A DNA stretch of 64,000 nt from an uncultured Candidatus Actinomarina sp. (GCA_902634185.1 CACPJC010000003.1:32369-96368), one strand, 5' to 3'; positions 33,586-57,190 are shown, counted from the first letter of the stretch. The notes: a model not told the origin generated them from the sequence alone. Translations and numbers: made by a program.

Positions 33586-34935
33586 TTATTTATTGGTTTT
33601 TGCGACATCCTTTAAGAATGCGTCATTGCTTTTGAGAGTTTTAAGCCTATCAATTAATAATTCTGTTGCTGCACCACCTTCAAGGCCAACAAGAACTCTT
33701 CTTAGAGTCCATAATGACTCCAGTTCTTTTGGAGAAACTAGTCGTTGTTCTTCACGAGTTCCAGATGGAGTAACATCTATCGCCGGGAATACTCTTTTAT
33801 CTGCAAGCTGTCTATCTAATCTAAGCTCCATGTTTCCAGTTCCTTTAAACTCTTCAAAGATAACTTCATCCATTTTTGAGCCCGTCTCAACAAGTGCAGT
33901 ACCAAGAATTGTTAAACTTCCTCCACCTTCTATGTTTCTAGCTGCACCAAAGAATTGTTTTGGAGGTGTTAAAGCAGTTGAATCAACACCACCTGATAAA
34001 ATTCTTCCACTAGCTGGAGTAGCTAAGTTGTGAGCTCTCGCAAGTCTTGTAATTGAATCCAATAAAATTACTACGTCCTTACCTTCTTCAACAAGTCTTT
34101 TTGCTCTTTCGATAGCTAATTTAGAAACTTGAGTGTGCTCATCTGGTGGTCTATCAAAGGTTGAAAATACAACTTCTCCGTCAACCGAACGTTGCATATC
34201 GGTAACCTCTTCTGGTCTTTCATCAACTAAGACAACCATTAAATAAACTTCTGGATTGTTAGCAGTAATAGAGTTTGCAATTTCTTTAAGAATTGTAGTT
34301 TTACCTGCTTTCGGTGGGGAAACAATCAATCCTCTCTGACCTTTTCCAATAGGTGCAATAAGGTCTACGATTCTTCCAACAAGTCGCTCTGGTTCACCAT
34401 CAATCTCAAGTTTTAGTCTCTCATCAGGAAAAAGAGGTGTCAGTTTATCAAAGTCTACTCTACGAGCCAAAAGTTCTGGATCAGCTCCATTTACAGTCTT
34501 AGGTTCAACTAATGCAGGATACTTTTCTTTTGCACGTGGTGCACGAATTGGTCCTGTTACGAGATCTCCTTTTCTCATTCTAAATTTTTTGATTGCTCCC
34601 GCTGGTACATATACATCCATCTCACTTGGTTTATAACCACTACATCTTAAAAATCCATAACCCTCTGGCAAGATATCAAGAATACCCTCTCTTGTTTCAC
34701 CCTCTTTAATTTGGCTATCACCAGAATTTACAACAGATGGCATATCTTTGTCTGAAGCTACAACTGCTACTTCTTCTTCTGCACCATCTGCAATATCACC
34801 AATTGCGTCACCTTGTTCTAATAAAAGATCTATTAACTTTGCCTTTTGAAGGCCTTTGTGTTCAAGACCTAAACCATCAGCTATTTCACGAAGATCTGCT
34901 ACTGGTTTTGATTGTAATTGTGACCTTGCGGACAT
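33586..34935 (-). CDS. rho: transcription termination factor Rho
   Basis: Rho_N/HeH domain. CSD. Walker A (SPPKAGKTT). RecA-like core. Confidence 0.95.
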   Translation of the reverse strand: MSARSQLQSKPVADLREIADGLGLEHKGLQKAKLIDLLLEQGDAIGDIADGAEEEVAVVASDKDMPSVVNSGDSQIKEGETREGILDILPEGYGFLRCSGYKPSEMDVYVPAGAIKKFRMRKGDLVTGPIRAPRAKEKYPALVEPKTVNGADPELLARRVDFDKLTPLFPDERLKLEIDGEPERLVGRIVDLIAPIGKGQRGLIVSPPKAGKTTILKEIANSITANNPEVYLMVVLVDERPEEVTDMQRSVDGEVVFSTFDRPPDEHTQVSKLAIERAKRLVEEGKDVVILLDSITRLARAHNLATPASGRILSGGVDSTALTPPKQFFGAARNIEGGGSLTILGTALVETGSKMDEVIFEEFKGTGNMELRLDRQLADKRVFPAIDVTPSGTREEQRLVSPKELESLWTLRRVLVGLEGGAATELLIDRLKTLKSNDAFLKDVAKTNK

Positions 34936-35050: not shown

Positions 35051-35845
35051 TTAAGCTGAACAAATATTGATGTAATCGGTTAAATACTCTTGTTCACTTG
35101 AATCTAATTCACCTGCTGTTCTGTAGTGATTGTATGCACCACCGTAATAACGCACAAGTGCATCAACTAAATATTCTTCCCCTCCAAAAAAGTCTCGTGC
35201 ATCTTGACGATATAACGTTGTTGAATTTTTTGGACAGTTCCTAGTTAAATATGTAAATGCATGAAGTGATTCATGAAGTAAAACATCATAAGAAACTGCA
35301 GCTGAAAAAGCTCTATCCGATATCCAAATAGAAAGTTTCCATTCTGCATTTTTGGTTCCATCTGAGCTTGTTCCGCTTGGATCCCATACTCCATAAGGAC
35401 ACCTCCCAACAAGTGAAGCCCCATATTGATGACAACCATTAATAACACTTATATTGTTTGTTTCGATTATTTGTAACAGTAATGGAGGTAATTGTTTGAC
35501 TAGTTCACCCAAAGTAGTTTGATTTGTGCCTTCGAATCCTGCGTATTCTGCAAATGGACCTGTGTAAACCGTTGTGGTTGTGGTTGAAGTGGTTGTTGTT
35601 GAAGTTGTAGATGTTGTGGTTGAAGTGGTTGTTGTTGAAGGTGGAACAGTTGTTGTTGAAGGTGGAACAGTGGTTGTAGTTGAAGATGTAGTAGTCGTTG
35701 GCTCAAGAGTTGTTGTAGTAGTATCAATGACTTGAATTTCTTCTTGTTCAAGTACAATTGTCTCTTCTTCTTGATTAAAGTTTATTACAACTAAAGAAAC
35801 AATTAATAACAGAAAAATAAATGAGTTTATATATCTGTTGTTCAT
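35051..35845 (-). CDS. secreted Thr-rich (mucin-like linker) protein with C-terminal HExxH domain
   Basis: Signal peptide. About 50-aa T/S/P-rich linker. C-terminal domain containing LLHESLHAF. Confidence 0.5.
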   Translation of the reverse strand: MNNRYINSFIFLLLIVSLVVINFNQEEETIVLEQEEIQVIDTTTTTLEPTTTTSSTTTTVPPSTTTVPPSTTTTSTTTSTTSTTTTSTTTTTVYTGPFAEYAGFEGTNQTTLGELVKQLPPLLLQIIETNNISVINGCHQYGASLVGRCPYGVWDPSGTSSDGTKNAEWKLSIWISDRAFSAAVSYDVLLHESLHAFTYLTRNCPKNSTTLYRQDARDFFGGEEYLVDALVRYYGGAYNHYRTAGELDSSEQEYLTDYINICSA

Positions 35846-37287
35846 CTTCTGGCCTTTACTTTTATAAATAAACCTAGAATCAAAATTGTTAAAATGTATC
35901 CAATTAGGCCAATTGCAAAGGTTAAAGAAAATGAACCCATACTTAATAAATCTTGTTGCATGTTGGCAAATTCACTATCTGGAGGAACAATAAGAATTCT
36001 TATAAACAACCACAAACCCAATATAAAACTTAAAAGTGGAAAGATTTTAAAAACACCTTGAGAGTCGGTAAGAGATTCAAATAACTCATTTCCACCACCC
36101 GGCAGTGACTTAAACAAAACTCCTTCTAAACACATCAAATAGCTAAGGGCTGCAGCTGCCGTCAGTACCGTTGAGTCTTTAATAAGAGGTATAGATGTTA
36201 GATAGAAGAAACCAAACCCTGCAAGACTCAAAGCAATTGTTGAGTAAAATTTTGGTGAAAGTTTTGCTATATTTCTTCTTCCAGTGATGTACGCAGATGC
36301 AAAAAATCCAAATATAAATCCAATTGGCATTTCAAAATAGATGAAAGCAAGAGTAGAAATCCCCGCAAAAAATATTGCTTGAGGAGCCCATTTAATTCTT
36401 ACTTTTTGCTTAAAAACTTTACTCTCAATTAATCCCTCTGTCCCCTCGTAAAACAAAGTAACAGCAATTAACCCAACGAGTGCAGCAATAAATATTGCTA
36501 AATTTTCAAGATCTAAAGTTAGATCAGCTCCTTCCTCAACAAAGCCTATTAAAAATGCAGTTGAAAAAAGAACGAAAAGAACTTTAACTAAAGTAATAAG
36601 CTTCTTTGAGCCACGAATGTTTCTATCTTTGGCAAACCATCGAATATTATTCGTTGAAATAATTTTGTTAAACCATTCTTGTAAGAGCAACACTACATAA
36701 AACAAAAAGATGATTCCCGTTGAAACAATTACAGCGATGCTGTTTTTTTCTTGATCTGTCAGATCAACATCCTCAAATAAGGGAATAGACGTAATCAACT
36801 CATTTGTTATTTCAATATTTAAAAAATCAGTTTCCTCGATGACGGGTGGTGGAAGAGTTGTTGTAGTTGTTGAAGTGGTAGTTGTTGTTGAAGTTGTTGT
36901 TGGTGGTGGAATTATTTTTAATAATTTTTGATTTATGTATTCCATCTCAACTATTTTTTTACATTCCTCTGCAGGACAATCAGGCCCAGTAACATTCTCA
37001 AATTCAGTAATAAAAACGCGTATTGTGACCCTTACATAATCTGGATAGCAACATAGCTCAAGTTCGCCATCTGGGCTTTCAAGTTGAATTGTTTCAATAT
37101 TGTTGTCGTGTGAAATTTGGAGGACGATGTCATCATAGTCCTCAAAATTTATAGACCATTCAACTAATATCTTTTCATTTTCTAATCGTTTTATATCAAG
37201 CTTTATATTTTCGGTATCTAAAGTTGGAGTAAAAAATGAACCATTGAAAAAGAGGAGGAATAATAAAAATATTAGACTTTTTTTCAT
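35842..37287 (-). CDS. polytopic membrane protein with N-terminal exported domain and poly-Thr linker
   Basis: Signal peptide. About 130-aa domain. PPPTTTSTTTTTSTTTTTLPPP linker. About 8-10 TM helices. No recognisable family. Confidence 0.5.
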   Translation of the reverse strand: MKKSLIFLLFLLFFNGSFFTPTLDTENIKLDIKRLENEKILVEWSINFEDYDDIVLQISHDNNIETIQLESPDGELELCCYPDYVRVTIRVFITEFENVTGPDCPAEECKKIVEMEYINQKLLKIIPPPTTTSTTTTTSTTTTTLPPPVIEETDFLNIEITNELITSIPLFEDVDLTDQEKNSIAVIVSTGIIFLFYVVLLLQEWFNKIISTNNIRWFAKDRNIRGSKKLITLVKVLFVLFSTAFLIGFVEEGADLTLDLENLAIFIAALVGLIAVTLFYEGTEGLIESKVFKQKVRIKWAPQAIFFAGISTLAFIYFEMPIGFIFGFFASAYITGRRNIAKLSPKFYSTIALSLAGFGFFYLTSIPLIKDSTVLTAAAALSYLMCLEGVLFKSLPGGGNELFESLTDSQGVFKIFPLLSFILGLWLFIRILIVPPDSEFANMQQDLLSMGSFSLTFAIGLIGYILTILILGLFIKVKARR

Positions 37288-37290
37288 TGA

Positions 37291-37920
37291 CTACTTTTGG
37301 ATTTTAGTTGCCTTTTCAAAAATTTCATTTACATTTTCTACATACCATTCATCTGTATATTTAGACCAGACGGGATAACTTGGATCATAACGTAGCCATA
37401 GAAATGTGGATCCATTGAATAATTGAAAAATATCATCAGCAAGTTCATCAGCAGAATCAGCATCATAATTTTTGCAGAGAGATTTGAGAACATCATAGGG
37501 TTCGCGCTGTATCCATTTTCCCGATGCTTGAATATCTCTAACTTCAAACCAAGCAAATCTAATTGCATTACCAAGTTCAACAACTTTATTTGCGATTGTG
37601 TCCAAAAACATGGTTATAGCGGCACCAGGCTCTGGGGAGGTTTGTAAAAATGCATTCAACTCATCAGCAACATCTTTAAATCCTAATTGAAATAGTGATC
37701 CATAAACATCTAATTTATTCTCAGGAAAATGATTGTAAGCAGTTGCAACAGACACTCCAGCATGCTTTGCAATTTGTGAGACAGTGACTTTTTCATGAGA
37801 AACGAGTGGATTATTAAATAGCTCGACTGCACTATTTATAAGTTTTTTATGCGCCTCATCATATGTTTTTTGTGCACGTAATGATCTTCCATCCTGTTTT
37901 TTTAATGGTTCAATGCTCAT
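37291..37920 (-). CDS. TetR-family transcriptional regulator
   Basis: HTH VSQIAKHAGVSVATAYNHF. 209 aa. Start directly abuts the stop of the giant ORF. Confidence 0.8.
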   Translation of the reverse strand: MSIEPLKKQDGRSLRAQKTYDEAHKKLINSAVELFNNPLVSHEKVTVSQIAKHAGVSVATAYNHFPENKLDVYGSLFQLGFKDVADELNAFLQTSPEPGAAITMFLDTIANKVVELGNAIRFAWFEVRDIQASGKWIQREPYDVLKSLCKNYDADSADELADDIFQLFNGSTFLWLRYDPSYPVWSKYTDEWYVENVNEIFEKATKIQK

Positions 37921-40900
37921 TTAATTACCACTTTCTATCCTAGTAAGAATCCCTGAAACAACGAGTCTTTGCCTAGCAGAGTACCTAGGGTGACAAGTTG
38001 TCAATGTCAGCCTGTCATCACCTCGATTAAAAAGAACATAATCTCCTGTGTTAGCATCAACCACTTCTATATCATCCACAATGTAATGGTATTTATTTGA
38101 CCCATATGTTAAATAAATCTCATCTCCAATTTCGACCAAATCTAATCTACTGAAAGGGGCACCATATGTTGTCCTATGGCCTGCAATTCCAACATTTCCA
38201 CCTGAACCCGGTAGTTTTGTCCCAAGATAGTGTCCTGGACCAAATTGCAAATTAAGTTCATCAGTACCTGAAACAACATATTGATTTACGTTTATACCTG
38301 GAATTTCAAGAAGACCGAATATTTCAGGTTGAAATTCATCAATCTTTGCACTTTGGTCAATGATGGTAAAATCTTGCAAAGTTTCAAAAACAGGAATGTC
38401 ACTTTGGAATAAGCGAAGAGGATTTGAAAAAATTGTAGGAGGATCTACGTCCTTTATTTCCTCACCTAGATAGATTTGTTCAAGATAAGCTTGAGCATTG
38501 TCTTGTTGAACATTTGATAAAAACATTTGTTGTGTTGCATAAATACCAAAACCCATACCTGTAATTATCGATAAAACAGCAAATCCAAGAGCAGGTCGTT
38601 TTAATTTTTTTCTATCAAAAAATTTTCTGTTAATTTTTTTTGTGTCTTTTTTTCGAGAAAATACCTTTTTCTCCGCGATTTTTGCATCGAGCTCATTACC
38701 AGAATATATAATTTGAAAGTTATTTGAAATTAGACCCAAACGCTCTTCAAGAATTTCTTTTGTAAGTTCTGTATTTTCTTCCTCGCAAATAGATTTTATG
38801 TTTTCAATTGCGACTAGAGTATATTGAAGCTCACTATCAAGTGCTTGTATCTCTGATTGATAAGTTGTAAAACTCTTTGCATATGGAGCAAATTTATTTA
38901 TATCAATACTAATTTCTACTTTTTCTTGTATTAGTTTCTCAATTTTTGTTTTTAATTTGAAGGCATGCTTATAAATATCCTCTAGCGAAATTTCACTTTC
39001 CATTAGTTTTCTTTTTCGATAAGATGTAAAAAGTATTACACCACCAACTAAAAATACTGAACCGCTTATGACAATATAGTCTAAATTTATTCCTGTAGCT
39101 GCCAAGGCTATACTATCCTCTCGATAGATGTAGGTAACGTTGTAACTACCATCAGTGAAATATATGTCATCATCATCATCCCACTCTAGAAAGTCATTTC
39201 CAGTTTCATCAGTAAGAGGTGCTTCACATATATCATCCTCTTCTAATATCATATCCTCACAAAAGTCATCCACTAATGGATCCGTTGGGTCTGGATCCGT
39301 TGGGTCAACTATACACTCAAGAAGTTCTTGTAAGTTTGTTGGATTACAAAATTCTTCTGGAGCAGGATCCGTTGGGTTTATAGGATCAGGATCTCTTGGA
39401 TCAATTGGACCTGGATCTGGATCTGTAGGATCAGTTGTTGTAGTTATTGTAGGATCAGTTGTTGTAGTTATTGTAGGATCAGTTGTTGTAGTTGTTGGGC
39501 AATCAACTGTAAAGCTTGGACCCCAACGTTTCCAACCGCCTGAAAAAGAATTAGAAGTTGTAGAGGTTTTGTATCTCCATCTAACGTTTTGTCCGCTTGG
39601 AACATTTACAGATCCCCTTTCTGAGCTACCTGGTGGAACAGATCGATTAGAAACGAGTGTTGACCAGTTTTTTCCACCATCTAGGGAATACTCAGCTAAG
39701 AAATAAGCATTCGCATTTGAAGAGTCGGAGTTAGCCATATTGAAATGTATGAGTTTTGCACCTCCTGAACATTCCTCTCGTGTATTTGAAACAGAAGGGT
39801 TAATTATTGGAGGTCCTGGCAGTGTTGTTGTAGTTGTTGGACAATCAACTGTAAAGTCTGGACCCCAACGTTTCCAACCGCCTGAAAAAGAATTAGGAGT
39901 TGTCGAGGTTTTGTATCGCCATCTAACGTTTTGTCCGCTTGGAACATTTACAGAGGCCATTTCTGAGCTACCTGGTGCAACAGATTGATTAGAAACGAGT
40001 GTTGACCAGCTTTCCCCACCATCTAGGGAGTACTGAGCTAAGAAATAAGCATTTGCATTTGAAGAGTCTGAGTTAGCCATATGGAAGTGTGTGAGTTTTG
40101 CACCTCCAGAACAAGCATTTCGAGTATTTGAAACAGAAGGGTTAATTGTTGGAGGTCCTGGCAGTGTTGTTGTGGTCGTTGGAGACGGATCATCAATACA
40201 ATCTAAAACTTTCTTGGTACCACCTTTTGTTTTTCTACCACTTAGTTCATCTTTAATAATAAAACGAAGTTTATATGTAGATCCATTTGGGACAGATAAA
40301 AGTGTAGTTAAGTCTCGTGTTTCTCCAGCAGCAATACTAAAAGTTTGATCAACAACTTTGGCTTTGTTTATTCTAATTCTCATTCTAATTGTTATGCCAA
40401 CAGTTGACCTTGAGTTATCTACAATTAAACCAATTCTCGCAGTTCCATCATCATTACATTCCATGAAGTTTGCAATCCTAAAATCTACTCTTGGAATTTC
40501 AACTGTTGTAGTAGTAATTTCCGGCAGTGTCGTAGTAGTTGTTGTAGTTGTAGTAGTTGTAGTTGTAGTTGTAGTAGTTGTAGTAGTTGTAGTTGTAGTA
40601 GTAGTGGTTGTTGTTACAACACAGCTAGCCGTATATGAAAGAGTAGGATCTACGCCTGGGATATCTGTATCTTCAGTCACCCAAGTACTACTGTCATGAG
40701 CGCCTCCAGATTTTCTTGAACTATATCTCCATTGAATACTTTCTCCATTAGCTAATGCGGGAGCAGAATACGTCTCCGATGAAGTAGCTGGTACCTCTTC
40801 ATCATCTTTCAATTGTGTCCAGTTAGAGCCACCATCAGTTGAGTATTCCACCCTATAAAAGACTGAGACAGTCGAATCAGAACCGCTACTAAGAGTTATT

Positions 40901-43900
40901 GAAGGTGTTTGTGTCTGAGAATCAGAACATGATCCTAGTGATGTTGAAACACTAGCGCACGATATCGTAAGCTTCGATCCTATCTCTGTCCATGTTGACC
41001 CACCATCAGTTGAATACCTATGTTCACGTCCAGTACCATTTGCTATTGCAGTATTTACCGCAAATTCTTGTGTAGCGCCAGCATTTATTGACTTACCACT
41101 GTCTTCACCGGTAACACTGCCTCCAAAATATGCCCAATCCCCAACATTTCCAGTCACCGCATTGGTTGCTCTTTTTTGTACTAAAAATGTAATAGCGACA
41201 TTACTTCCGCTGTTGTCGACAGTTATTTTAATTTTACCCATTGTGCCGCCCTGGCTTGTGCCGTTATTTTTACAACCATTTGTTTCGTGAGAAACAGCCG
41301 GAGCAATAACGGGACAATCAATAGTTATTGTTGAAAGTGTTACCTCTGATTGGCTGAGTCCCTCTGATGAGTTAGCAACAGAGTATTTTATGATTACCGA
41401 GGTATCGTGACTTAGTGCTGGTACGGAAAGTGAGGAGGAGTCTGTCGCTCCAGCTCCAACGGTTGTAGCAGTTAATACTGTAAAGTTTGATCCCCCGTCA
41501 GTTGAGTAGCTGACGGTGAATGTTCCAGCAGCGGTTGAATTTGTATTTATAAGAGTAATTGGGATTGCTGCACTTCCACTCGAACAACTTGCAGCAGTTG
41601 CTGTGGCAGTAGCATTAAGTATGGGGCAATCTATCTCAATACTGCTTAGGTTGGTTGTTGAAGCAGATGAAAAGTCGGTACTTGATGAGGTCTGATAACG
41701 AATATAGACGGTAGTGTCGTTTGTAAATGATGAACCTGAGAGACTAACAGTAGAGGTTGAGTCTGCTCCAACTAAAACATGAGATCCTCCGATACCGTCT
41801 GTCCAGGTTGAGTTATCTGTAGAGTATTGAACTTTAAAATAATTACCAGAACCCTGTCCAGTATTGTCAAGGAGTACGTTTATAGGTGCTCCCCCACCTG
41901 AACATGTTCCATGCGTTGCAGAGACTGCTGGTGTTGTACAACTGACTGTGGCACTATTTAAACTAGCACCAGTGACATAATCTCCTGAGAATGATCCAGA
42001 AACCGTAGAGGTTTTATATCTCCACTGAATTGCAGTACCGTTATTGACAGTTTGCGTCACTGTATCTGATCCACCAACCGTAACCGATTTACTTGCTTCT
42101 TTTTCAACCCAGTTTGATCCACCGTCTATTGAGTACTCAATTAGGAAATACGCAGTAGCTTGTGATGAACCACTGTTTGAGATAGCTAATGTTGATGTCT
42201 TTGAAGCTCCACTACAACTAGCTGATAAACTCTGTGAACCAGAAGTTGTAATATTACATGAAACATCTGAACTTGCACTTCCAGTAGCAGTAGGAGTTCC
42301 TGTAAACGTTGCACTTGTTGTCGATTCTTCATATCTCCAGGTGATGTTTGAGCCAACCGGGACGCTATGCGTCAATGTTTCTGTGCTATCAACACCAACA
42401 GACTGATTAGCTTCCTTCACTTGCCAGGCACCGCTATCAATCTTGTACTCAACTTTTACATACGCTGTTGTTGTTGCAGAGGATGAGTTTGTAATTGCAA
42501 AACTTGATGTTGCGCTACCACTGGAACAAGTTCCAAGTGTAGCTGAAACACTTACGTCTATAACAGGACAGTCAACAGTTGCACTATTTAGATCACTACT
42601 TGTGACATAACTTCCTGAGTATGATCCTGAAGTTGTAGAGGTTTTATATCTCCATTGTATAGCTGAATTATGTGGTACAGACTGTGTAAGTGTTGCTGAG
42701 CCATTATTATTTACAGTTTGATTGGCTGCTTTCTCTGTCCAGTTAGATCCGCCATCTAAAGAGTACTCAACAAGGACATAAGCTACAGCATTTGCTGAAT
42801 CAGAGTTATTAATAGTTAATGTAGAGGTTTTTGCTCCACTAGAACAACTTCCAAGGGACTGTGATGCACTGACATCTATTATTGGACAATCAACAGTTGC
42901 ACTGTTCATATCACTACTTGTGACATAACTTCCTGAGAATGATCCTGAAGTTGTAGAAGACTTATATCTCCACTGAATAGCTGCATCGTGAGATACAGAT
43001 TGTGTCAGTGTTTCAGATGCGTTTTTTGCAACGGACTGGTTCGATGCTTTCTCTGTCCATGTTGACCCACCATCAACGGAGTATTCAACTAGGAAGTACG
43101 CTGTTGTGTTGGCGGAGTTAGAGTTTGATAAAGTTAAAGTTGAAGTTGCTGCTCCAGCTGAACAACTACCTAATGCCTGTGATGCACTTACATCTATTAC
43201 TGGACAATCAACAGTACCACTTGCAACAGTTGTGGGTGTCAGTCCTGTAAAACTAGCTGATGTATCTGAAGATGTAACTCTCCAAGTTATTGCAGAACCA
43301 TGAGATACATTTTCTGAAAATAAGGAACCCGTTCCAGTTAATATAGTGGCGCTTGCATTCTTTTCTGTATAAGTCGAACCACCATCCGTTGAGTATTCTA
43401 CTTTTACGTAAGCAGTTGAACCTGACGTATTCGTTACTGTAAGTGTTGATGTAGCAGTTCCAGAACCAGAACAACTACCTAAATCTTGAGAGCTTGAAAC
43501 TGTTACGGCTTGAGGACAATCAACAGTTGCACTATTCATATCATCAGCTGTGATATAACTTAGTCCCGTCCAGTTCCCTGATGTATCAGAGCTTTTATAT
43601 CTCCACTGGATAGCTGACCCATCAGGTACACTAACCGTCAAAGAGGTATTTGTTTGACCATCGGAAATTGATAAGTTATCTCCTTCCTGTGCATCTGTGT
43701 GAACAGTCCAGCTTGAACCTCCATCTAGTGAGTACTCAGCAGTAACATATGCTGTTGAACCAGAACTATTTTGTAGAGAAAGGGTAGAGGTATCAGAACC
43801 AGCTGAACAACCTCCTAGTGATTGTGAATCTGTCAGAGATATAGCTGTAGGACAGTCAACAGTACTACTTGTTACTTCTGTACCTGAACCAGAAAATGTA

Positions 43901-46900
43901 TTACTTGTTGAAGAAGTTAGATAGGTCCATGTAATAGTAGATCCATCAGGAACTGTTTGGGCAGCCAGTGTTGTAGAAGCACCTGCTGCAACTGATTGAT
44001 TTGTGACTACTGTATTCCAGTTTCCACTATCGATTTTGTATCGAACATAAAAATATGCTGTTGTATTTGCTGATCCAGAGTTAGATAAAGTTAAAGTTGA
44101 ATTTTGAGATCCTCCAGAACAGCTACCATCAAGTGATTGGGATACAGAGGGGTCAATATATGGGCAATCAATTGTATCGCTATTTACTATAGTGGCGTCA
44201 CCGCTAAAATAACCACTTGTAGTTGATGTCTGATAATACCATTTAGCATAAGAGCCATCCGCAATCGGTAATGTGACGGTCACGGAGCTACCTGCAGCCA
44301 CTGCTATATTGAAGTTACTATCTCCCGACGATACGGTCAAATTAGATGATGATAAACCTCCTGATCCATCAAGTTGGTACCTTATCTTTACGTAGACAGT
44401 TGAATTTGCTGATGCGGAGTTTGATAAAGTGACCGTTACTGTTGCTGAACCAGCGGAACAACTACCGACTGATTGAGCAAAAGAGAAATCTGTATATACA
44501 CAATCAACAGTTGCACTATTCATATCACTAGCTGTCACATAACTTAGTCCCGTCCAGCTCCCTGACGCGTTAGAGCTTTTGTATCTCCATTGGATAGCTG
44601 ATCCATGAGGTACGCTTACTGTTAAAGAGGTGTTCGTTTGACCATTGGTAATTGTTAAATTGTCTGCTTCCTGTGCGTCTGTGTGTACAGTCCAAGTAGA
44701 CCCGCCATCGGTTGAGTACTCAGCTGTGACATACGCTGTTGATCCAGAAGTATTTTGAAGAGAAAGTGTAGATGTAGCAGAACCAGCTGAGCAACTACCA
44801 AGTGATTGTGAATCTGTCAGAGTTACTGCAGTAACACAGTCCACCGTTAATGCCGTACCATCTGGAGAGGTATAGCTTCCAGAAGTTGGATCCGATGATG
44901 CATCAGCTCGAGCTCGCCAAGATACCTGATACCCATGTGGTTGGGCGGATAATGAACGTGTAATCGATGCACCTTGAGCTAATTCAATTCCAGTTAAATT
45001 GTCAGTCCAATCAGATATATCACTGCCGTCTAAAGTGAGTTTGTACTGAAGGTCGACAAAAATTGAACCGTTAGCAGTGTTGGTGATTGTAGCTGAAGGA
45101 ACAGCTGAACCAGCTGAGCATGAACCCATAGCATCTGTAATTGTAAATGTTGCCGTTGCGCAGTTAACTGTTGAGCTATTCATGTCACTAGCTGTGATGT
45201 AACTTAGTCCTGTCCAATCACCTGATGTATCAGAGCTCTTGTACCTCCATTGAATTGATGAGCCGTGAGAAACACTGACCGTCAGCGAGGTATTCGTCTG
45301 ACCATTAGTAATAGTTAAATTATCTGCTTCCTGTGCGTCAGTGTGAACAGTCCAACTAGAACCACCATTGGTTGAGTACTCAGCAGTAACATACGCGGTT
45401 GAACCTGAACTATTTTGTAGTGATAGTGTAGAGGTAGCAGAGCCTTCAGAACAACTACCAAGTGATTGTGAGTCAGTGAGGCTAACTGCTGTTGGATCAG
45501 GAGAACAACCGGAGGCATTAATCGTTATTGAAGAAAGAGCAGTCGTATTTGAAGTCGGTTCACGCAAATCATAAGTAGTGTTTTCTGCATACCAACTAAT
45601 TACCACTGTAGCACCATTAGATTGACCTGGAACATCTAGGGAGGTATTGCTCGATGATGACGAGACAGAAGTGCCTGATGTCAGAGATTGTGAGCTTCCA
45701 CCATTAACTGTATATGTAACAACAAAGTTAGTAGTTACGTTAGAACTTAAGTTATTTAAGGTAACATCTATTTTACGATTTGACCCATCACAACTTCCCT
45801 GAGTAGCTGTAACAGTGGGGGCGAAATCAACATTGGGTGCACCTTCGTGGCATGCAGCACCATCATTTTTATTTGCTCCAGATTGTACTGTGCCTAGACT
45901 TGAACTCCAGCTCCAACTACTTCCGTTATATTCAGCTTTTCGAACATCTCCAGTTGAATTATGCACAAAATAAGCATGTTCTCCACCAAATCCAAACGCA
46001 GCACCAACATCTGAATTGCTCCATGAATATGGTGAAGTTGGTGAGCTTAATGAGTGGTCAGTTATTTCTATTGTGAAAGAACTCCCAGATACAATTAAGT
46101 ATCCAAGCATTACTTGATCATTTACATTGTCATAAGCCACAAAATCTGCTTCGTGGTTTACACCTCCACTAGAGAATGTTGGAAAGTTTGAACCATCTCT
46201 CAACCAGGTAAAGTCTTTTGCTTTAGCTAAATTACCTGCAACAGAGTTTGTGTTTACTGTAAGAGAGGAAGTTACATCTGTATAATTTGAAGAGTTAGTG
46301 TAATCTGTACCATCTATACGAATTAAGAGTGGTGATGAGCCCTTTAAGAACCCATTACCTGAAAGTAAATAACCAGTTCCGTTGTATTCAAAATAGGATG
46401 CAGCATTATTATCAGCAGAACTAAAACTGGCTATTAACGATGGGTTGTTATCAGCAATATTATCGTTGTTAGCATCAGTTGCATCCATATAGTAAAGTGT
46501 CCTATTTTTACTCGAATCTTTCCGAATCATCCAGAGATTTCCAAGATTATCCATCATCGAGTTGTTCCACTCATTTGAATTTGATCCTGGAAGGTTTTGA
46601 TACTCGAATGTTGCTCCTGATGGTGTGGCAGGACTAGAACTCACAAGATTTCCTGAGTTACTGTCCCACCCGTATACTTCAACTTTGTCATCTGAAGAGT
46701 TGTATTTTGTTTGATAACCTAATGGATTTCCATCTGAGTTAAAACATGAGAGCTGTGAAGATGCAAAAGCAGGTTCAGGATCAACTGTCTCAATGGTCAC
46801 ATATGCAAGAGAGACAATCATTAAAAATGACATAACTAAATTGAAAGTTTTCTTATTAAAGACGAACGAAAACAGCTTTTTACACAAAAGCACAACAAAG

Positions 46901-46932
46901 TCGAAGGCGTTTAATATTTTTATATTCCCCAC
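37921..46932 (-). CDS. giant (3003-aa) cell-surface repeat protein carrying a C-terminal LAATG sorting signal fused in frame to a class E sortase domain
   Basis: Single open frame. The probable true start is the internal Met of MSFLMIVSLAYVTIETVDPEPAFA (signal peptide). It contains about 17 Ig-like ~100-aa repeats, poly-Thr and PT/DP linkers, then LAATG + hydrophobic segment + RKRK, a coiled-coil, a TM helix and a sortase domain. Confidence 0.75.
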   Translation of the reverse strand: MGNIKILNAFDFVVLLCKKLFSFVFNKKTFNLVMSFLMIVSLAYVTIETVDPEPAFASSQLSCFNSDGNPLGYQTKYNSSDDKVEVYGWDSNSGNLVSSSPATPSGATFEYQNLPGSNSNEWNNSMMDNLGNLWMIRKDSSKNRTLYYMDATDANNDNIADNNPSLIASFSSADNNAASYFEYNGTGYLLSGNGFLKGSSPLLIRIDGTDYTNSSNYTDVTSSLTVNTNSVAGNLAKAKDFTWLRDGSNFPTFSSGGVNHEADFVAYDNVNDQVMLGYLIVSGSSFTIEITDHSLSSPTSPYSWSNSDVGAAFGFGGEHAYFVHNSTGDVRKAEYNGSSWSWSSSLGTVQSGANKNDGAACHEGAPNVDFAPTVTATQGSCDGSNRKIDVTLNNLSSNVTTNFVVTYTVNGGSSQSLTSGTSVSSSSSNTSLDVPGQSNGATVVISWYAENTTYDLREPTSNTTALSSITINASGCSPDPTAVSLTDSQSLGSCSEGSATSTLSLQNSSGSTAYVTAEYSTNGGSSWTVHTDAQEADNLTITNGQTNTSLTVSVSHGSSIQWRYKSSDTSGDWTGLSYITASDMNSSTVNCATATFTITDAMGSCSAGSAVPSATITNTANGSIFVDLQYKLTLDGSDISDWTDNLTGIELAQGASITRSLSAQPHGYQVSWRARADASSDPTSGSYTSPDGTALTVDCVTAVTLTDSQSLGSCSAGSATSTLSLQNTSGSTAYVTAEYSTDGGSTWTVHTDAQEADNLTITNGQTNTSLTVSVPHGSAIQWRYKSSNASGSWTGLSYVTASDMNSATVDCVYTDFSFAQSVGSCSAGSATVTVTLSNSASANSTVYVKIRYQLDGSGGLSSSNLTVSSGDSNFNIAVAAGSSVTVTLPIADGSYAKWYYQTSTTSGYFSGDATIVNSDTIDCPYIDPSVSQSLDGSCSGGSQNSTLTLSNSGSANTTAYFYVRYKIDSGNWNTVVTNQSVAAGASTTLAAQTVPDGSTITWTYLTSSTSNTFSGSGTEVTSSTVDCPTAISLTDSQSLGGCSAGSDTSTLSLQNSSGSTAYVTAEYSLDGGSSWTVHTDAQEGDNLSISDGQTNTSLTVSVPDGSAIQWRYKSSDTSGNWTGLSYITADDMNSATVDCPQAVTVSSSQDLGSCSGSGTATSTLTVTNTSGSTAYVKVEYSTDGGSTYTEKNASATILTGTGSLFSENVSHGSAITWRVTSSDTSASFTGLTPTTVASGTVDCPVIDVSASQALGSCSAGAATSTLTLSNSNSANTTAYFLVEYSVDGGSTWTEKASNQSVAKNASETLTQSVSHDAAIQWRYKSSTTSGSFSGSYVTSSDMNSATVDCPIIDVSASQSLGSCSSGAKTSTLTINNSDSANAVAYVLVEYSLDGGSNWTEKAANQTVNNNGSATLTQSVPHNSAIQWRYKTSTTSGSYSGSYVTSSDLNSATVDCPVIDVSVSATLGTCSSGSATSSFAITNSSSATTTAYVKVEYKIDSGAWQVKEANQSVGVDSTETLTHSVPVGSNITWRYEESTTSATFTGTPTATGSASSDVSCNITTSGSQSLSASCSGASKTSTLAISNSGSSQATAYFLIEYSIDGGSNWVEKEASKSVTVGGSDTVTQTVNNGTAIQWRYKTSTVSGSFSGDYVTGASLNSATVSCTTPAVSATHGTCSGGGAPINVLLDNTGQGSGNYFKVQYSTDNSTWTDGIGGSHVLVGADSTSTVSLSGSSFTNDTTVYIRYQTSSSTDFSSASTTNLSSIEIDCPILNATATATAASCSSGSAAIPITLINTNSTAAGTFTVSYSTDGGSNFTVLTATTVGAGATDSSSLSVPALSHDTSVIIKYSVANSSEGLSQSEVTLSTITIDCPVIAPAVSHETNGCKNNGTSQGGTMGKIKITVDNSGSNVAITFLVQKRATNAVTGNVGDWAYFGGSVTGEDSGKSINAGATQEFAVNTAIANGTGREHRYSTDGGSTWTEIGSKLTISCASVSTSLGSCSDSQTQTPSITLSSGSDSTVSVFYRVEYSTDGGSNWTQLKDDEEVPATSSETYSAPALANGESIQWRYSSRKSGGAHDSSTWVTEDTDIPGVDPTLSYTASCVVTTTTTTTTTTTTTTTTTTTTTTTTTTTTTLPEITTTTVEIPRVDFRIANFMECNDDGTARIGLIVDNSRSTVGITIRMRIRINKAKVVDQTFSIAAGETRDLTTLLSVPNGSTYKLRFIIKDELSGRKTKGGTKKVLDCIDDPSPTTTTTLPGPPTINPSVSNTRNACSGGAKLTHFHMANSDSSNANAYFLAQYSLDGGESWSTLVSNQSVAPGSSEMASVNVPSGQNVRWRYKTSTTPNSFSGGWKRWGPDFTVDCPTTTTTLPGPPIINPSVSNTREECSGGAKLIHFNMANSDSSNANAYFLAEYSLDGGKNWSTLVSNRSVPPGSSERGSVNVPSGQNVRWRYKTSTTSNSFSGGWKRWGPSFTVDCPTTTTTDPTITTTTDPTITTTTDPTDPDPGPIDPRDPDPINPTDPAPEEFCNPTNLQELLECIVDPTDPDPTDPLVDDFCEDMILEEDDICEAPLTDETGNDFLEWDDDDDIYFTDGSYNVTYIYREDSIALAATGINLDYIVISGSVFLVGGVILFTSYRKRKLMESEISLEDIYKHAFKLKTKIEKLIQEKVEISIDINKFAPYAKSFTTYQSEIQALDSELQYTLVAIENIKSICEEENTELTKEILEERLGLISNNFQIIYSGNELDAKIAEKKVFSRKKDTKKINRKFFDRKKLKRPALGFAVLSIITGMGFGIYATQQMFLSNVQQDNAQAYLEQIYLGEEIKDVDPPTIFSNPLRLFQSDIPVFETLQDFTIIDQSAKIDEFQPEIFGLLEIPGINVNQYVVSGTDELNLQFGPGHYLGTKLPGSGGNVGIAGHRTTYGAPFSRLDLVEIGDEIYLTYGSNKYHYIVDDIEVVDANTGDYVLFNRGDDRLTLTTCHPRYSARQRLVVSGILTRIESGN
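37924..38593 (-). other. class E sortase catalytic domain (C-terminal 223 aa of the giant ORF)
   Basis: TM anchor ALGFAVLSIITGMGFGIYA. GHYLGTKLPG..GNVGIAGHRTTYGAPFSRLD (catalytic His). LTLTTCHP (catalytic Cys, codon 37993-37995). QRLVVSG (Arg). Order and spacing match SrtE. Confidence 0.8.
39007..39105 (-). other. cell-wall sorting signal: LAATG + 24-aa hydrophobic segment + RKRK
   Basis: Translation IALAATGINLDYIVISGSVFLVGGVILFTSYRKRKL. LAxTG is the class E sortase recognition motif. LAATG maps to 39091-39105. Confidence 0.7.
40525..40620 (-). repeat. (ACN)n tract encoding about 30 consecutive Thr
   Basis: Plus strand reads gtagtagttgtagttgtagtagttgtagtagttgtagttgtagttgtagtagtggttgt. Protein reads VVT(30)LPEITTTT. 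Confidence 0.85.
40700..45600 (-). repeat. tandem ~300-nt (~100-aa) near-identical coding repeats (Ig/FN3-like modules) in the giant gene
   Basis: Protein units SLGSCSAGSATSTL.L.NSSGSTAYV.AEYS.DGGS.WT...WRYKSS..SG...ATVDCP recur. Long stretches are nearly identical at the DNA level, e.g. 43540-43830, 44520-44820 and 45190-45480. Confidence 0.8.
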
Positions 46933-46986: not shown

Positions 46987-48315
46987 TCAGGAAAACCTTG
47001 CTTTTATAGATTCAATGATTTGATCTTTTTGAGGCTCTAGAGTCTCAAAATCCTCATCCTGATCAATCTCAGAACCAGGAAAATCTTTAATAAGTGGAGA
47101 TATCACATTGCTGAACTTTTCAGGTGATGCAGTAGCTACAGCGACTGTTGGAACACTTGAGTTTATATCTATAGCCATTCTTAAAGAGGTGACTGTATGA
47201 GGATCAAAAACAATATTAAAAAGATCATTGAATGTTTTTATTTCCTCTTTTATCTTTTCATCATCAAAGGTCTGTGAGCTAAATATATGTTGTAATTTAT
47301 CTCTGCTACCTTCACTTAACATTCCTTTTTTATTTTCATTAAGATCTTGATAGAAAGATGATGCATCTGATTCAAAGTCATATATTAATCTCTCTAAACT
47401 AGATGGGATCTGAATATCCATACTTGGGGCAACACTGGGTTTTGTTGTTTGTGGTTCTAGGATTCCAGAATCAATAAAACGCTTCAAGACATCATTAACA
47501 TTTGTTGTACACATGATCTGATTTATTTTCAGTCCATGTGATCTACCAAACCATGCTGAGTAAGCATTACCAAAATTTCCAGACGGTATTGCAACATTTA
47601 TTGGTGAAGTAAACTGTTTGGTCAACCAGACATAATAAGTGACCTGTCCCATAACTCGAAGCCAGTTGATTGAGTTCAAAGAGATAATTCTTCTCTCAAA
47701 TGGATTGTCAGATAATATCTCTTTTGCAATTCTTTGACAGTCATCATATGACCCTTCAACTGCAATATTGAAAACATTATCTTTGATAACACTTGTCATT
47801 TGTTTTCTTTGATATTCACTAATTTTGTTTGCGGGATGAAGAACGACAATATCAATATTGTCTGAATCTTTTACAGCTTGGATAGCAGCACTCCCTGTAT
47901 CACCGCTGGTTGCTACAAGAACGAGCCCTCTCTCTCCTAATTCACTCAGTCTTTTACCAGCAATTGCTCCTAGAGGTTGTAGAGCATAATCTTTAAATGA
48001 TTTTGTAGGTCCATGAAAAAGCTCCATGACGACGGTTGTATCATTTAAATCTTTAAGTACTGGTTCTGGAGAGTTTTCAAATCCAGAATATAGTGATAAG
48101 CCATCAACATATTTAGCTGAGTTTTTATCTAGTGCAATAAAGATTGTTTTTACAAAATCCTCATAACTTAAGTCCTCTTCAGTTAAATGATTAAGGTTAT
48201 CAATTGTTAATGAATCAGGTAAATAAAGGCCTTTATCAGGTGCTAGCCCTGAAAGAATGACATCTTCAAAAGAGATGGTCTCTTTATGTCCCCTGGTTGA
48301 TTGATACTGTACCAC
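46987..48315 (-). CDS. thrC: threonine synthase
   Basis: PLP-lysine context PTKSFKDYALQ. 442 aa. Follows hom. Confidence 0.85.
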   Translation of the reverse strand: MVQYQSTRGHKETISFEDVILSGLAPDKGLYLPDSLTIDNLNHLTEEDLSYEDFVKTIFIALDKNSAKYVDGLSLYSGFENSPEPVLKDLNDTTVVMELFHGPTKSFKDYALQPLGAIAGKRLSELGERGLVLVATSGDTGSAAIQAVKDSDNIDIVVLHPANKISEYQRKQMTSVIKDNVFNIAVEGSYDDCQRIAKEILSDNPFERRIISLNSINWLRVMGQVTYYVWLTKQFTSPINVAIPSGNFGNAYSAWFGRSHGLKINQIMCTTNVNDVLKRFIDSGILEPQTTKPSVAPSMDIQIPSSLERLIYDFESDASSFYQDLNENKKGMLSEGSRDKLQHIFSSQTFDDEKIKEEIKTFNDLFNIVFDPHTVTSLRMAIDINSSVPTVAVATASPEKFSNVISPLIKDFPGSEIDQDEDFETLEPQKDQIIESIKARFS

Positions 48316-49572
48316 TTAGACGTAGACGCGAAGTGTTGAGGTCACTGTTGTGACGGAATCTAGTGCTGATATTTGATCAATAGAATTCTTGATATCTTTC
48401 TCTGGTGCCTCGTGGGTAACTAAAACAAGTTCTGCTTTATCTCCCCTGCCTTCTTGGATAACACTCTCAATACTTACGTTATTTTCACCAAAAGTTCCAG
48501 AGATTTTTGCCAAAACACCAGGTTCATCATTGACGGAAAGCCTTATAAACATGCTTGATACCACATCCTCAAAACTTTTCATTTCGCCTTTAAATTCTCT
48601 TAGTGGATACCAGTTTGTTTGATCACTGCTTAGTTGATGGCAAGCACTTAACACGTCTCCAATAATTGCACTTGCTGTTGGTTCAGCACCTGCGCCTGGT
48701 CCTGAAAACACCAACTGATTTATATTATCTCCTTCAACGACAACAGCATTTAAAGCTCCTCTTATTGCAGCAAGAGGATGTTTCGTATCAATTAAGACAG
48801 GATGAACCCTTGCATTAAAGCCATTCTTATTTTCAATCTGTGCAACTAATTTAATTGTCTTTCCGAGCCTTGCTGCCCATTCAAAATCTTCTTTTGTAAT
48901 GCCAGAAATTCCATCGGTAAAGAGTTCGTCTGCACTTGGTGATACTCCAAAACAAAGAAGCGATAAAATTACTGCTTTGTATTTTGCATCTATTCCTTCA
49001 ACATCATTTGTTGGATCAGGTTCTGCATATCCTAGTTCCTGTGCAGTCGATAGTGCATCTTCGTAGGAACTTCCCTCTTCCATAGCAGTCAGCATATAGT
49101 TGGTTGTTCCGTTTATGATCCCGAGTACCTTTGACAACTCTTCGCCTCTAAGACTTTCTATGAGTGGTTTAAGTACAGGTATACCTGCAGCGACTGCTGC
49201 CTCAAAATATAAACAAGCATTATTTTCTTTTGCAGTATTAATTAGATCAGATCCAGAATCGGCAATGATATCTTTATTTGCTGTTATTACTGCTTTACCA
49301 TTTTGCAAGATTGCCTTTATGTACTCTTTACCGGGATCAATACCTCCAAGAACTTCTATAACAAGATCAATTGAATCATCATTTAAAATGTCATCAAAAT
49401 TGTCAGTGAGAATATCGTCTGGTATTTCTCTTTTTTTACTTTTATCTTTTACTAAAACTCTTTTTACATTTAATCCAACTATTCCTTTATCTAAGTTCAT
49501 GAGGCGTGAGATAACAGCTGAACCAATATTGCCAGCACCCATAACAGCTACATTAAATGTTTTATTTTCCAT
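48316..49572 (-). CDS. hom: homoserine dehydrogenase
   Basis: VAVMGAGNIGSAV NAD(P) motif. C-terminal ACT domain. Confidence 0.9.
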   Translation of the reverse strand: MENKTFNVAVMGAGNIGSAVISRLMNLDKGIVGLNVKRVLVKDKSKKREIPDDILTDNFDDILNDDSIDLVIEVLGGIDPGKEYIKAILQNGKAVITANKDIIADSGSDLINTAKENNACLYFEAAVAAGIPVLKPLIESLRGEELSKVLGIINGTTNYMLTAMEEGSSYEDALSTAQELGYAEPDPTNDVEGIDAKYKAVILSLLCFGVSPSADELFTDGISGITKEDFEWAARLGKTIKLVAQIENKNGFNARVHPVLIDTKHPLAAIRGALNAVVVEGDNINQLVFSGPGAGAEPTASAIIGDVLSACHQLSSDQTNWYPLREFKGEMKSFEDVVSSMFIRLSVNDEPGVLAKISGTFGENNVSIESVIQEGRGDKAELVLVTHEAPEKDIKNSIDQISALDSVTTVTSTLRVYV

Positions 49573-56275: not shown

Positions 56276-56350
56276 TGGCTGGGGGAGAAGGACTCGAACC
56301 CTCAACGTTGGGACCAAAACCCAATGTGTTGCCAATTACACCATCCCCCA
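56276..56350 (-). tRNA. tRNA-Gln (anticodon UUG)
   Basis: The reverse complement folds as a cloverleaf. Acceptor TGGGGGA/TCCCCCA. D-stem GTGT/ACAC. Anticodon stem TTGGG/CCCAA with loop TTTTGGT. T-loop TTCGAGT. 3' GCCA. Confidence 0.85.
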
Positions 56351-56365
56351 ATACTTGTCTTAATT

Positions 56366-57190
56366 CTAATCTGAAATTGTTTCCAAACTAAAATCAATTT
56401 TTTTTACTATTTTTACAATTCTAAATTGGTTCTCATCTATAAGGTCAAACTTTTTTTGTAAGTTATCCAAAGTGCCAAGACAAAACATCGAGCTACCACT
56501 CCCCGACAAAAAGAATTCTTCATCTGTTGATGATTCTAAGTAATCTTTAATTTTTATTAAATTGGGTTCAATTATTGTTGATGGATTCCAGAAGTCGTTA
56601 AATATTTTTATATCTTTATACGTATTTACTAAAGTTGAAGTATTTTTTAATCGATCAAACTCTAAAAATGCTTTTGCAGTTGAAACAATTTCATTAGGTA
56701 CCACAAGCAACATATTCAATTCAATATCAATTTTTTTTGGCTCGATAATATCACCGATTCCTGTTACAAACGCTGGTTGTCCATTAATAAAGAAAGGTAC
56801 ATCGCTACCAATTTTTTGAACAACATCTTCATTGGATGGAATAGATAGGTTATATACTTCTGACAACTTCGACAATAACGCTCCTGCATTGGAACTACCG
56901 CCTCCAAGGCCCGATTCTGTTGGAATATTCTTAGTTATATTTATTTCAAAAAATTTAGAAAAATCATTTATTTCGCGTAATAAGTTTAAAGATTTAGATA
57001 CAGTATTATTTTCTGGGATATTCATTGAGTCGAAAGTAATAATATCTTTATCATTCTTAATCTCTTTTATTTCAATAACATCATAAAGATCTATTGGAAC
57101 GATTAAAGACTCAATTTTGTGAAGTCCATTAACTAATTCGTCTAACACTCTCAGGTTTAGATTTATTTTTCCAAAGGATTTAATTTTCAT
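56366..57190 (-). CDS. ispE: 4-diphosphocytidyl-2-C-methyl-D-erythritol kinase
   Basis: MKIKSFGKINLNLRV. GHMP kinase motif PTESGLGGGSSNAGA. Confidence 0.85.
   Translation of the reverse strand: MKIKSFGKINLNLRVLDELVNGLHKIESLIVPIDLYDVIEIKEIKNDKDIITFDSMNIPENNTVSKSLNLLREINDFSKFFEINITKNIPTESGLGGGSSNAGALLSKLSEVYNLSIPSNEDVVQKIGSDVPFFINGQPAFVTGIGDIIEPKKIDIELNMLLVVPNEIVSTAKAFLEFDRLKNTSTLVNTYKDIKIFNDFWNPSTIIEPNLIKIKDYLESSTDEEFFLSGSGSSMFCLGTLDNLQKKFDLIDENQFRIVKIVKKIDFSLETISD

Follow-up and report, generated by a model that had tools for sequence, protein, structure and literature searches.

Gene Content of the thrC-rho Interval

The stretch analysed in this study (hereafter, the window) comprised 64,000 nucleotides (nt) from an uncultured Candidatus Actinomarina sp. 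(GCA_902634185.1 CACPJC010000003.1:32369-96368). The subject of the work was the interval between thrC and rho at positions 35,051 to 46,932, where a giant, putatively exported protein is fused in frame to a sortase. Gene identities were established from a listing of open reading frames (ORFs) together with Pfam and NCBIfam scans of the window. Contigs of relatives likewise pointed to Candidatus Actinomarina. The G+C content was about 35%, and the minus strand carried every gene from 27 to 57 kb, in the order glmU, prs, yqeY, a gene for an 854-amino-acid (aa) protein, hom, thrC, a 3003-aa ORF, a TetR gene, genes for a 481-aa and a 264-aa protein, and rho. Downstream of rho were found rpmE, DUF1385, prfA, prmC, tsaC, glyA, an atpI-like gene and then, from atpB onwards, the atp operon.

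All features of the locus and all segments of the giant protein given below are encoded on the minus strand. The conserved left flank was formed by hom (48316-49572; NF004976, E = 5.5e-138) and thrC (46987-48315; TIGR00260, E = 5e-60), together the putative left anchor for recombination, and the conserved right flank by rho (33586-34935; TIGR00767, E = 1e-179). Between them were located the giant gene (37921-46932) and the genes for a TetR-family regulator (37291-37920; PF00440), a polytopic membrane protein of 481 aa (35842-37287) and a poly-Thr protein of 264 aa that contains the motif LLHESLH (35051-35845). These four cassette genes were co-directional and close together, neighbours being separated by 0 to 3 nt or overlapping by 4 nt, and the start of the TetR gene adjoined the stop of the giant gene directly. 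Both the set of four genes (giant, TetR, membrane and HExxH) and the flanking order, hom-thrC on one side and rho-rpmE-prfA-prmC-tsaC followed by atp on the other, had been proposed in the first-pass annotation and were borne out by the ORF listing and the profile scans. The promoter scan did not rise above shuffled sequences (54 vs 62.8), and the promoter and terminator scan gave no usable operon boundary.

The order in Mycobacterium tuberculosis is hom-thrC-thrB-rho-rpmE-prfA-hemK-sua5...atp (Rv1294-Rv1304). No homoserine kinase, also as first annotated, was present among the ORFs of the window, all of which were read; alternative types of the enzyme were checked by ORF reading, without a profile search. 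The sole GHMP kinase of the window was ispE (56366-57190; TIGR00154, E = 1.5e-39), and a tblastn search of the window with E. coli ThrB as the query returned just a weak match to this gene.

Architecture of the Giant Protein

The listed start codon of the giant ORF is GTG, and translation may in fact begin as many as about 25 codons further on. The N-terminal signal region (aa 1-57; 46762-46932) was delimited by hydropathy, with a hydrophobic core at aa 29-51 and the site AFA|SS. It was 82-100% conserved where the adjoining domain was only about 30-40% identical; the signal peptides of loci L099 and L102 were shorter. This adjoining region, a hypervariable N-terminal tip domain (aa 58-370; 45823-46761), matched no Pfam family and showed 27-99% identity among relatives. 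It is followed by about 16 tandem repeats of beta-sandwich type, each 104-112 aa long (aa 371-2104; 40621-45822), recognised by the spacing of Cys residues and by VDC boundaries, which are the main body of the variable passenger. Each repeat contained a Cys pair and an Asp-box-like motif, YSxDGGSxW, with Pfam matches to Reelin_subrepeat-B, CHB_HEX_C and BNR, and a 318-nt repeat unit was detected in this region. The next segment (aa 2105-2609; 39106-40620) comprised a poly-Thr run, two 114-aa modules that constitute a 342-nt repeat of 91% identity, TITTTTDP repeats and an acidic Pro/Asp stalk, and it is here that homology to relatives sets in again.

Behind the stalk, a motif scan and hydropathy located LAATG (aa 2610-2614; 39091-39105) and a first transmembrane segment (TM1, aa 2615-2638), followed by RKRK (39019-39105 for motif and TM1). 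This can be read as a sorting signal, LAATG-INLDYIVISGSVFLVGGVILFTSY-RKRK, in which the motif, the hydrophobic segment and the basic tail are all present, and it was the sole sorting-signal-like site in the window (aa 2610-2642). It is not C-terminal: 389 residues follow the motif. They comprise a helical linker, predicted to be cytoplasmic and basic at both ends (aa 2639-2780), a second transmembrane segment (TM2, aa 2781-2800; linker and TM2 at 38533-39018) and a sortase catalytic domain (aa 2875-2994; 37951-38310; PF04203, E = 1.6e-29). The linker and TM2 were homologous to the N-terminal half of a free-standing 390-aa sortase (P0103). The motifs GHRTTYG, TLTTC(2980)HP and RQRLV, which supply His, Cys and Arg, were invariant in 14 aligned sequences. 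Orthologues of this sortase are named class E sortase by NCBI, and the closest solved structures to the domain were 5uus and 5go5/5go6. The association of an LAATG signal with a sortase in one giant protein, claimed at the outset, was confirmed in the 3003-aa ORF. Hydropathy and the distribution of basic residues fit an out-in-out topology as the predicted arrangement.

Conservation and Origin of the Substrate-Sortase Fusion

The fused form was found as a single ORF in 15 complete genes on other contigs (12 from genomes and three from metagenomes), which came from independent assemblies of single amplified genomes (SAGs), metagenome-assembled genomes (MAGs) and metagenomes, obtained in different projects and with different technologies. 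In the 12 genome loci the complete ORF measured 1763-2892 aa, and its LAxTG preceded the C-terminus of the sortase by about 390-400 aa; the three metagenome genes were shorter (1168-1360 aa) and carried MADTG at the same place. The motif variants among fused genes were LAATG, LADTG, LANTG, LAETG and MADTG, and the C-terminal module was 41-98% identical overall. An artefact of sequencing or annotation, or a pseudogene, is suggested by two long-read MAGs in which the gene is split here, by a frameshift in L033 and into pieces of 123 and 415 aa in L063. This explanation is scarcely credible given the continuous frame in the 15 complete genes and in near-identical SAG contigs of this strain, a ratio of nonsynonymous to synonymous divergence (dN/dS) of 0.06-0.19 for the giant C-terminal module, and an alignment of the fused module without any conserved internal Met or start codon. 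The fusion is real and is conserved under purifying selection.

In a sister lineage (L029, L059-L062) substrate and sortase are encoded by two genes. The substrate of this lineage ends in a canonical terminal sorting signal, ...PIAATGIFLELYVFFFVIFSSAGIVLINWLPRRRRG-stop; in L029 the tail has the form PIAATG-hydrophobic-RRRRG-stop at the extreme C-terminus and aligns with the internal LAATG signal of the fused form. The 390-aa sortase ORF begins 6 nt past the substrate gene and has an N-terminal helix of its own, followed by KKKN, a linker, a second helix and the catalytic domain. When both forms were aligned, the fused proteins were without exactly the approximately 38 residues that span the junction of the two genes. 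On this comparison an in-frame deletion is proposed as the origin of the fusion, by which the sorting-signal helix of the substrate and the first helix of the sortase would have been combined; the topology would have been preserved because two helices became one in the fused form. In a third lineage (L063, P0091) the TetR gene is located upstream of the giant gene, the giant protein ends in a sorting-signal-like tail of its own, and a separate 542-aa two-span sortase still adjoins rho.

These alignments also bear on whether the internal site is used at all. The LAATG might stay unprocessed, the giant protein being tethered by two helices and the sortase serving other substrates or being structural, and the internal position of the motif, unlike the C-terminal position in all characterised substrates, speaks for this possibility. 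We regard it as unlikely, since xAxTG is kept in all fused genes despite a module identity of 41-98%, the motif is homologous to the canonical terminal signal of the two-gene lineage, the catalytic triad is invariant, and no other sorting signal is present in the window. Neither a natural fusion of substrate and sortase nor the thrC-rho locus was found described in the literature that was searchable here.

Hypervariability of the Passenger and Probable Exchange of Alleles

Nucleotide alignments with relatives ran through hom and thrC and stopped at 46.70-46.79 kb, which is 140-230 nt into the giant ORF and just past the signal peptide. Homology resumed within the same ORF at 39.2-41.0 kb, ahead of the LAATG site, the resumption points being 40970 for L004, L064 and L071 and 39175-39270 for L009-L011. 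The hypervariable segment, as defined by loss of nucleotide homology (about 39300-46700, with the right boundary at about 39.2 to 41.0 kb), therefore extended over about 5.7-7.5 kb and was contained entirely in the giant gene (39.3/41.0-46.7 kb). Locus L002 was 95.9% identical over 58324-46710, a flank of 11.6 kb, and beyond that showed scattered repeat matches of 65-81%. Homology was lost at the same breakpoint in nine metagenome contigs whose thrC was 95-98% identical (aa), and the five of them that reached far enough encoded a different N-terminal domain, of 35-42% identity. Conserved flanks with divergent content, the hallmark of a replacement-type hypervariable locus, were thus found for the passenger segment, not for the other three genes.

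Divergence of the N-terminal domain did not follow that of the neighbouring thrC. Pairs with thrC identity of at least 95% had a median N-domain identity of 40%, and 77% of these pairs were below 50%; in L006 and L007, with identical thrC (100%), the N-domains shared 32%. Conversely, L003 and L015 (thrC 75%) had N-domains of 87% identity, and L005 and L034 (thrC 71%) of 84%. The N-domains thus represent discrete, old allele classes that move across species. In L007 the synonymous divergence (dS) from the window was 1.13 for thrC but 0.056 for the giant C-terminus and 0.09 for TetR; thrC is far diverged and the C-terminus and TetR are near-identical, which indicates a recent import by recombination reaching beyond the giant gene. 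The segment L007:17751-21315 is near-identical to 35739-39306 of the window.

Three SAGs that encode an identical TetR (L055-L057) carried the same allele, at 96-99% nt identity, with deletions of whole repeats. Such repeat indels between near-identical strains arise because of the internal repeats of 318-342 nt and the poly-Thr microsatellites. They lend some weight to neutral repeat instability and assembly noise, rather than allele replacement under selection, as the source of the variability, as do SAG contigs that end or turn chimeric within the gene (L020 and L056) and a skew of metagenome contig ends that was merely mild. This last figure, 23 of 77 ends within 1.5 kb downstream of thrC against 14 of 76 upstream, was not used as evidence. 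Instability and noise are nevertheless an improbable source of the pattern as a whole: the non-repetitive N-domain has discrete alleles of 27-45% identity beside thrC of 95-100%, distant species share these alleles at 84-98%, and the breakpoints at 46.70-46.79 kb were reproduced in nine independent metagenome contigs and several SAGs.

Some of these assemblies show further peculiarities. In L020:13965-21326 a SAG assembly joins the giant gene to an inverted copy of the rho-side genes, and in L056:4353-12794 another joins it to its own inverted 5' part with thrC and hom. Both joins are probably chimeras that originated within the repeats during amplification or assembly, and care is needed with database copies of the giant gene. 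Loci L032 and L044, with the TetR-first gene order, had hom 93% identical to that of the window but an adjoining thrC of only 72%, and the hom/thrC boundary looks like a recombination junction in them.

Distribution and History of the Cassette

A thrC scan with one genome per species yielded 50 Actinomarina/Actinomarinales loci, 45 of which were informative, that is, had sequence downstream of thrC. A giant repeat-protein gene followed thrC in 42 of the 45 informative species genomes, over a range of thrC identity of 66-97% (aa). The homologous giant gene came directly after thrC in 34 loci; TetR was first after thrC in nine, and in eight of these nine a repeat-protein ORF of more than 3000 aa was visible behind TetR. 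One locus each had the arrangements thrC-TetR-rho (L041) and thrC followed directly by rho (L043). The complete order giant, TetR, membrane protein, HExxH protein and rho was present in L010, L011, L055 and L057, and the cassette reached rho and rpmE wherever contigs extended far enough. Variants were also observed: in L033 rho was preceded by the giant gene, the membrane-protein gene, TetR and a 283-aa ORF without a match, and in L063 by the giant gene, a separate sortase gene and three further ORFs. In metagenomes the giant gene was downstream of thrC in most of 80 loci and a few lineages were without the cassette: thrC adjoined rho in L090, L091 and L142, and was followed by an SBF transporter and then rho in L094 and L096.

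In a neighbour-joining tree of hom and thrC, which was midpoint-rooted and affected by recombination, the cassette-less lineages were nested among cassette-bearing ones, and this nesting points to repeated loss of the cassette. In none of the cassette-less lineages (L043, L041, L090, L091, L094 and L142) was thrB found at the site. The cassette did not displace thrB, because lineages without the cassette also lack thrB there.

The composition of the cassette gave no indication of a foreign source. The G+C content at third codon positions (GC3) was 0.19-0.27, compared with 0.18-0.24 in the neighbouring housekeeping genes. The total G+C content of 39-46 kb was above that of the flanks because of codon position 2 (0.59), in accordance with the Ser, Thr, Ala and Gly content. 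No tRNA flanked the cassette, the only tRNA of the window being tRNA-Gln at 56276-56350; no integrase was found among the ORFs of the window, and no direct-repeat boundary, all repeats being internal and coding. The sortase end of the giant gene, TetR, the membrane protein and the HExxH protein aligned to relatives at 73-99% nt identity. The dN/dS values were 0.06-0.33, mostly 0.06-0.19 (giant C-terminal module, TetR and membrane protein), beside 0.07-0.11 for thrC. All four of these parts are under purifying selection.

The interval had originally been described as a strain-variable envelope island of about 12 kb inserted where thrB is located in M. tuberculosis. As a recent insertion replacing thrB, this would agree with the absence of the cassette in L043, L090, L091, L142, L094 and L041, with the raised total G+C of 39-46 kb and with the hypervariability of part of the region. 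The relatives argue otherwise: the cassette is at the same site in 42 of 45 species genomes, purifying selection has conserved three of the genes along with the two ends of the fourth, GC3 is flank-like, none of the tRNA, integrase or repeat marks of a boundary is present, and the lineages without the cassette are nested, which suggests loss, and never have thrB at the site but rather thrC-rho, thrC-TetR-rho or thrC-SBF-rho. A recent insertion in a thrB slot is therefore very improbable. Two of the comparisons that the first-pass annotation had recommended turned against it, the synteny survey by showing largely the same genes at the same place in relatives, which is a large part of what it had named as refuting, and the comparison of G+C by showing equal GC3 and an excess at codon position 2. 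Of the hallmarks of a horizontally acquired island (absence in close relatives, atypical composition, integration marks), none was found. What stood of the description was a surface locus with a highly variable passenger; the variability does not extend to the other three genes or to the ends of the giant gene. The thrC-rho locus has a core-like architecture with one hypervariable gene segment.

With respect to thrC itself, the gene of the window (46987-48315) is of the long type, with Thr_synth_N and THR4_C domains, and an exact-protein look-up gave no match. Outside Actinomarinales, the scan of the genome collection gave hits in Bacteroidetes only (29-31% identity); it was seeded with peptides of this thrC, so that distant relatives are unranked.

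Proposed Function and Comparison with Known Systems

We consider it likely that the locus is an ancient, vertically inherited surface operon of Ca. Actinomarinales at thrC-rho, encoding a self-sorting fused giant protein whose passenger is replaced by recombination. The steps of the proposed mechanism were drawn from the known chemistry of the sortase family. The product would be a giant Ser/Thr-rich fibre composed of the tip domain, the Asp-box beta-sandwich repeats and the poly-Thr and acidic stalks. The N-terminal signal would direct Sec export of the passenger up to a stop-transfer at TM1, the hydrophobic segment of the LAATG sorting signal; the chain would then pass through the basic-flanked cytoplasmic linker, and TM2 would re-export the class-E-like sortase domain. 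The sortase, through Cys2980, could cleave the T-G bond of LAATG, either in its own chain (in cis) or in that of a neighbour. The passenger of about 2550 aa would be transferred to peptidoglycan (or its precursor), and the two-span sortase of about 390 aa would stay in the membrane as the counterpart of the free-standing enzyme of the sister lineages. Between lineages the passenger would be swapped by homologous recombination, anchored in thrC and the signal-peptide end on one side and in the stalk, sortase and TetR end on the other, and repeat gain and loss would add variation. Deeply divergent tip alleles common to several species would result, with pressure from phages or grazers, a conjecture, as the most plausible selective agent.

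Several observations weigh against this scheme. No demonstrated case of cleavage at an internal LAATG in any natural protein was found in the literature. The best class for the sortase was class E, at 104.4 bits to NF033747, which is under the NCBIfam cutoff of 160. Different alleles were seen only at the species boundary (flanks of 95.3-95.9% nt identity, in L002 and L064), and genomes of 97-99% share the allele. The hom and thrC tree used for polarity is distorted by recombination. The cassette was lost in several lineages and is, for that reason, dispensable. Finally, the roles given to the accessory genes (TetR, membrane and HExxH) rest on weak or no homology.

A more far-reaching formulation, about which we are evenly divided, is that this is a natural self-sorting protein, in which a sortase is permanently attached in cis behind the giant substrate that it processes and a single product gives rise, via the internal LAATG, to a wall fibre and a membrane sortase. 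The fusion would have originated by an in-frame deletion merging two transmembrane helices and would have been kept by selection across several genera that belong to the most streamlined of marine actinobacteria. The gene would in addition be a hypervariable envelope locus, the second that spans the order, with alleles common to several species, and would have escaped notice in the published pangenome analysis of Actinomarinales.

The nearest counterparts of the enzyme are the class E (housekeeping) sortases of actinobacteria with LAxTG substrates, such as S. coelicolor SrtE1/E2, C. diphtheriae SrtF and A. oris SrtA (PMC5148588, PMC9282373). Shared with them are the sortase fold, the His/Cys/Arg triad, the LAxTG motif with hydrophobic segment and basic tail, and a membrane-anchored enzyme whose catalytic domain is, as predicted here, extracellular. 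A cognate motif was present as LAATG in the window and as LADTG, LANTG, LAETG, MADTG or IAATG in orthologues. Apart from the family score noted above, the locus differs from the class E systems in that no small gene for a SafA-type partner (cf. PMC9282373) was seen in the cassette. Moreover, enzyme and substrate are on one polypeptide, and instead of a single N-terminal anchor there are two spans with a cytoplasmic helical linker, as predicted, of about 140 aa. Self-cleaving fusion tags of a sortase with LPXTG have been engineered as artificial soluble constructs, in the order enzyme-motif-cargo (see also PMC4658790). As in those tags, sortase and recognition motif are on one chain, which would permit intramolecular or neighbour cleavage, but the giant protein is a natural membrane protein with the order cargo-motif-membrane loop-enzyme. 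A conserved natural fusion of substrate and enzyme, together with a two-gene sister form showing its origin, constitutes a ready-made test system that bears on the cis action of sortases, the role of the sortase cytoplasmic domain and the stoichiometry of enzyme and substrate.

Concerning variability, replacement-type flexible genomic islands (fGIs) and hypervariable giant surface genes of marine bacterioplankton are a concept of Rodriguez-Valera and co-workers (cited in PMC7771536). The thrC-rho locus resembles such islands in its fixed position, conserved flanks, divergent versions in close relatives, probable envelope-exposed product and putative exchange by homologous recombination. It differs from them in that an internal segment of one gene, not a multigene cluster, is swapped, in its core-like composition, and in alleles that are common to different species and genera. 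In Ca. Actinomarinales the glycotype island fGI1, with 43-79 kb of glycosyltransferase and sugar genes, 28% GC and tRNA-targeted cassettes, is the one fGI reported to be shared throughout the order (PMC7771536). Both loci belong to the same organisms and involve envelope diversification at a conserved location, but thrC-rho has no tRNA and its GC3 is core-like. The locus is not mentioned in PMC7771536, and the words 'sortase' and 'giant' are absent there. For marine microbiology, a hypervariable surface gene at a fixed core position, with the neighbouring presence/absence slot described below, goes beyond the single published order-wide island, and trans-species allele classes are to be expected if, in these cells with genomes of about 1 Mb, an exposed fibre of receptor-like character is under selection by phages or grazers. 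In databases the giant gene is routinely truncated by gene callers and assemblers, and many entries named 'class E sortase, partial' are the tail of the giant protein.

Accessory Genes of the Cassette

The TetR-family regulator had an N-terminal helix-turn-helix domain (PF00440) at 29 bits, with a cutoff of 24. Its orthologues in the cassette were 45-98% identical, and the exact protein was present in three SAGs and one metagenome contig. It probably regulates the operon.

The 481-aa protein comprised a signal, a beta-sandwich domain, a poly-Thr stalk and a polytopic membrane domain. In its AlphaFold model the predicted local distance difference test (pLDDT) was 50; the model was confident just at aa 20-125, the beta-sandwich, and the membrane domain was poorly modelled. 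Only 31 related clusters were found among 1.84 billion representatives, a family too small to deepen the alignment. A weak match to NF041501 (E = 4e-13; 49 bits with a cutoff of 150) was obtained, and the literature searched held nothing relevant on this family. A role as protein O-glycosyltransferase on the poly-Thr stalks was considered, with evidence neither for nor against it.

In the 264-aa protein an N-terminal anchor and a poly-Thr stalk precede a Cys-rich HExxH domain of 170 aa, with H97/E98/H101, E129/E130 and four Cys residues invariant. No match to it was found in Pfam, in PDB sequences or in other sequence families. The HExxH domain was modelled by AlphaFold2 (AF2) at a pLDDT of 89.8, and its best fold matches were without exception zincins (PPEP-2, anthrax LF, selecase, YbeY and BlaR1), at non-significant levels (E at least 0.07, TM-score about 0.36). 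The protein is a putative small zincin, probably active on the surface layer. Pro-Pro endopeptidases (PPEP-1/Zmp1 and PPEP-2; M34) are encoded beside the sortase-anchored adhesins that they release in C. difficile and P. alvei. The cassette similarly has a small HExxH protein encoded beside a sortase substrate, and PPEP-2 (6fpc) was its best weak structural match; this match was non-significant (E = 0.07, TM-score 0.36-0.38, 12-13% identity), and the 264-aa protein has an anchor and a poly-Thr stalk of its own. By analogy, a PPEP-like release role may be speculated.

The yqeY-hom Interval and Other Features of the Window

The interval between yqeY and hom was occupied by an 854-aa secreted protein (49616-52180, minus strand) with PG_binding_1, reprolysin/metzincin-like, cadherin and TSP3 regions, so that hom-thrC lies between two surface-protein loci. 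Among 43 genome loci (within L001-L053), 19 had an empty interval of 47-97 nt, and it measured 1-6.4 kb in the other 24, where it held homologues of the 854-aa protein (39-99% identity), paralogues of the 264-aa HExxH protein, or both. In terms of gene content (presence/absence), the yqeY-hom slot is the real island.

Poly-Thr stalks recurred in several exported proteins of the window. One of them, encoded at 59819-61210, is a 463-aa secreted or lipoprotein-like protein with a poly-Thr stalk and an HELVH motif, belonging to no Pfam family. A soluble HisKA+HATPase_c kinase and an OmpR-type response regulator were encoded at 14290-15670, adjoining phoU-pstBAC, a double-domain pstS, ppk, ppx and sixA; the G+C content of 8-15 kb, around these phosphate genes, was unusually low (0.27-0.31). 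A published analysis of Actinomarinales reported two-component systems as totally absent. At 4279-6969, the alpha subunit of a 2-oxoacid:ferredoxin oxidoreductase had, at both termini, long acidic extensions of EPVVE-type repeats and duplicated 'IRSAEARAKxLGI' segments.

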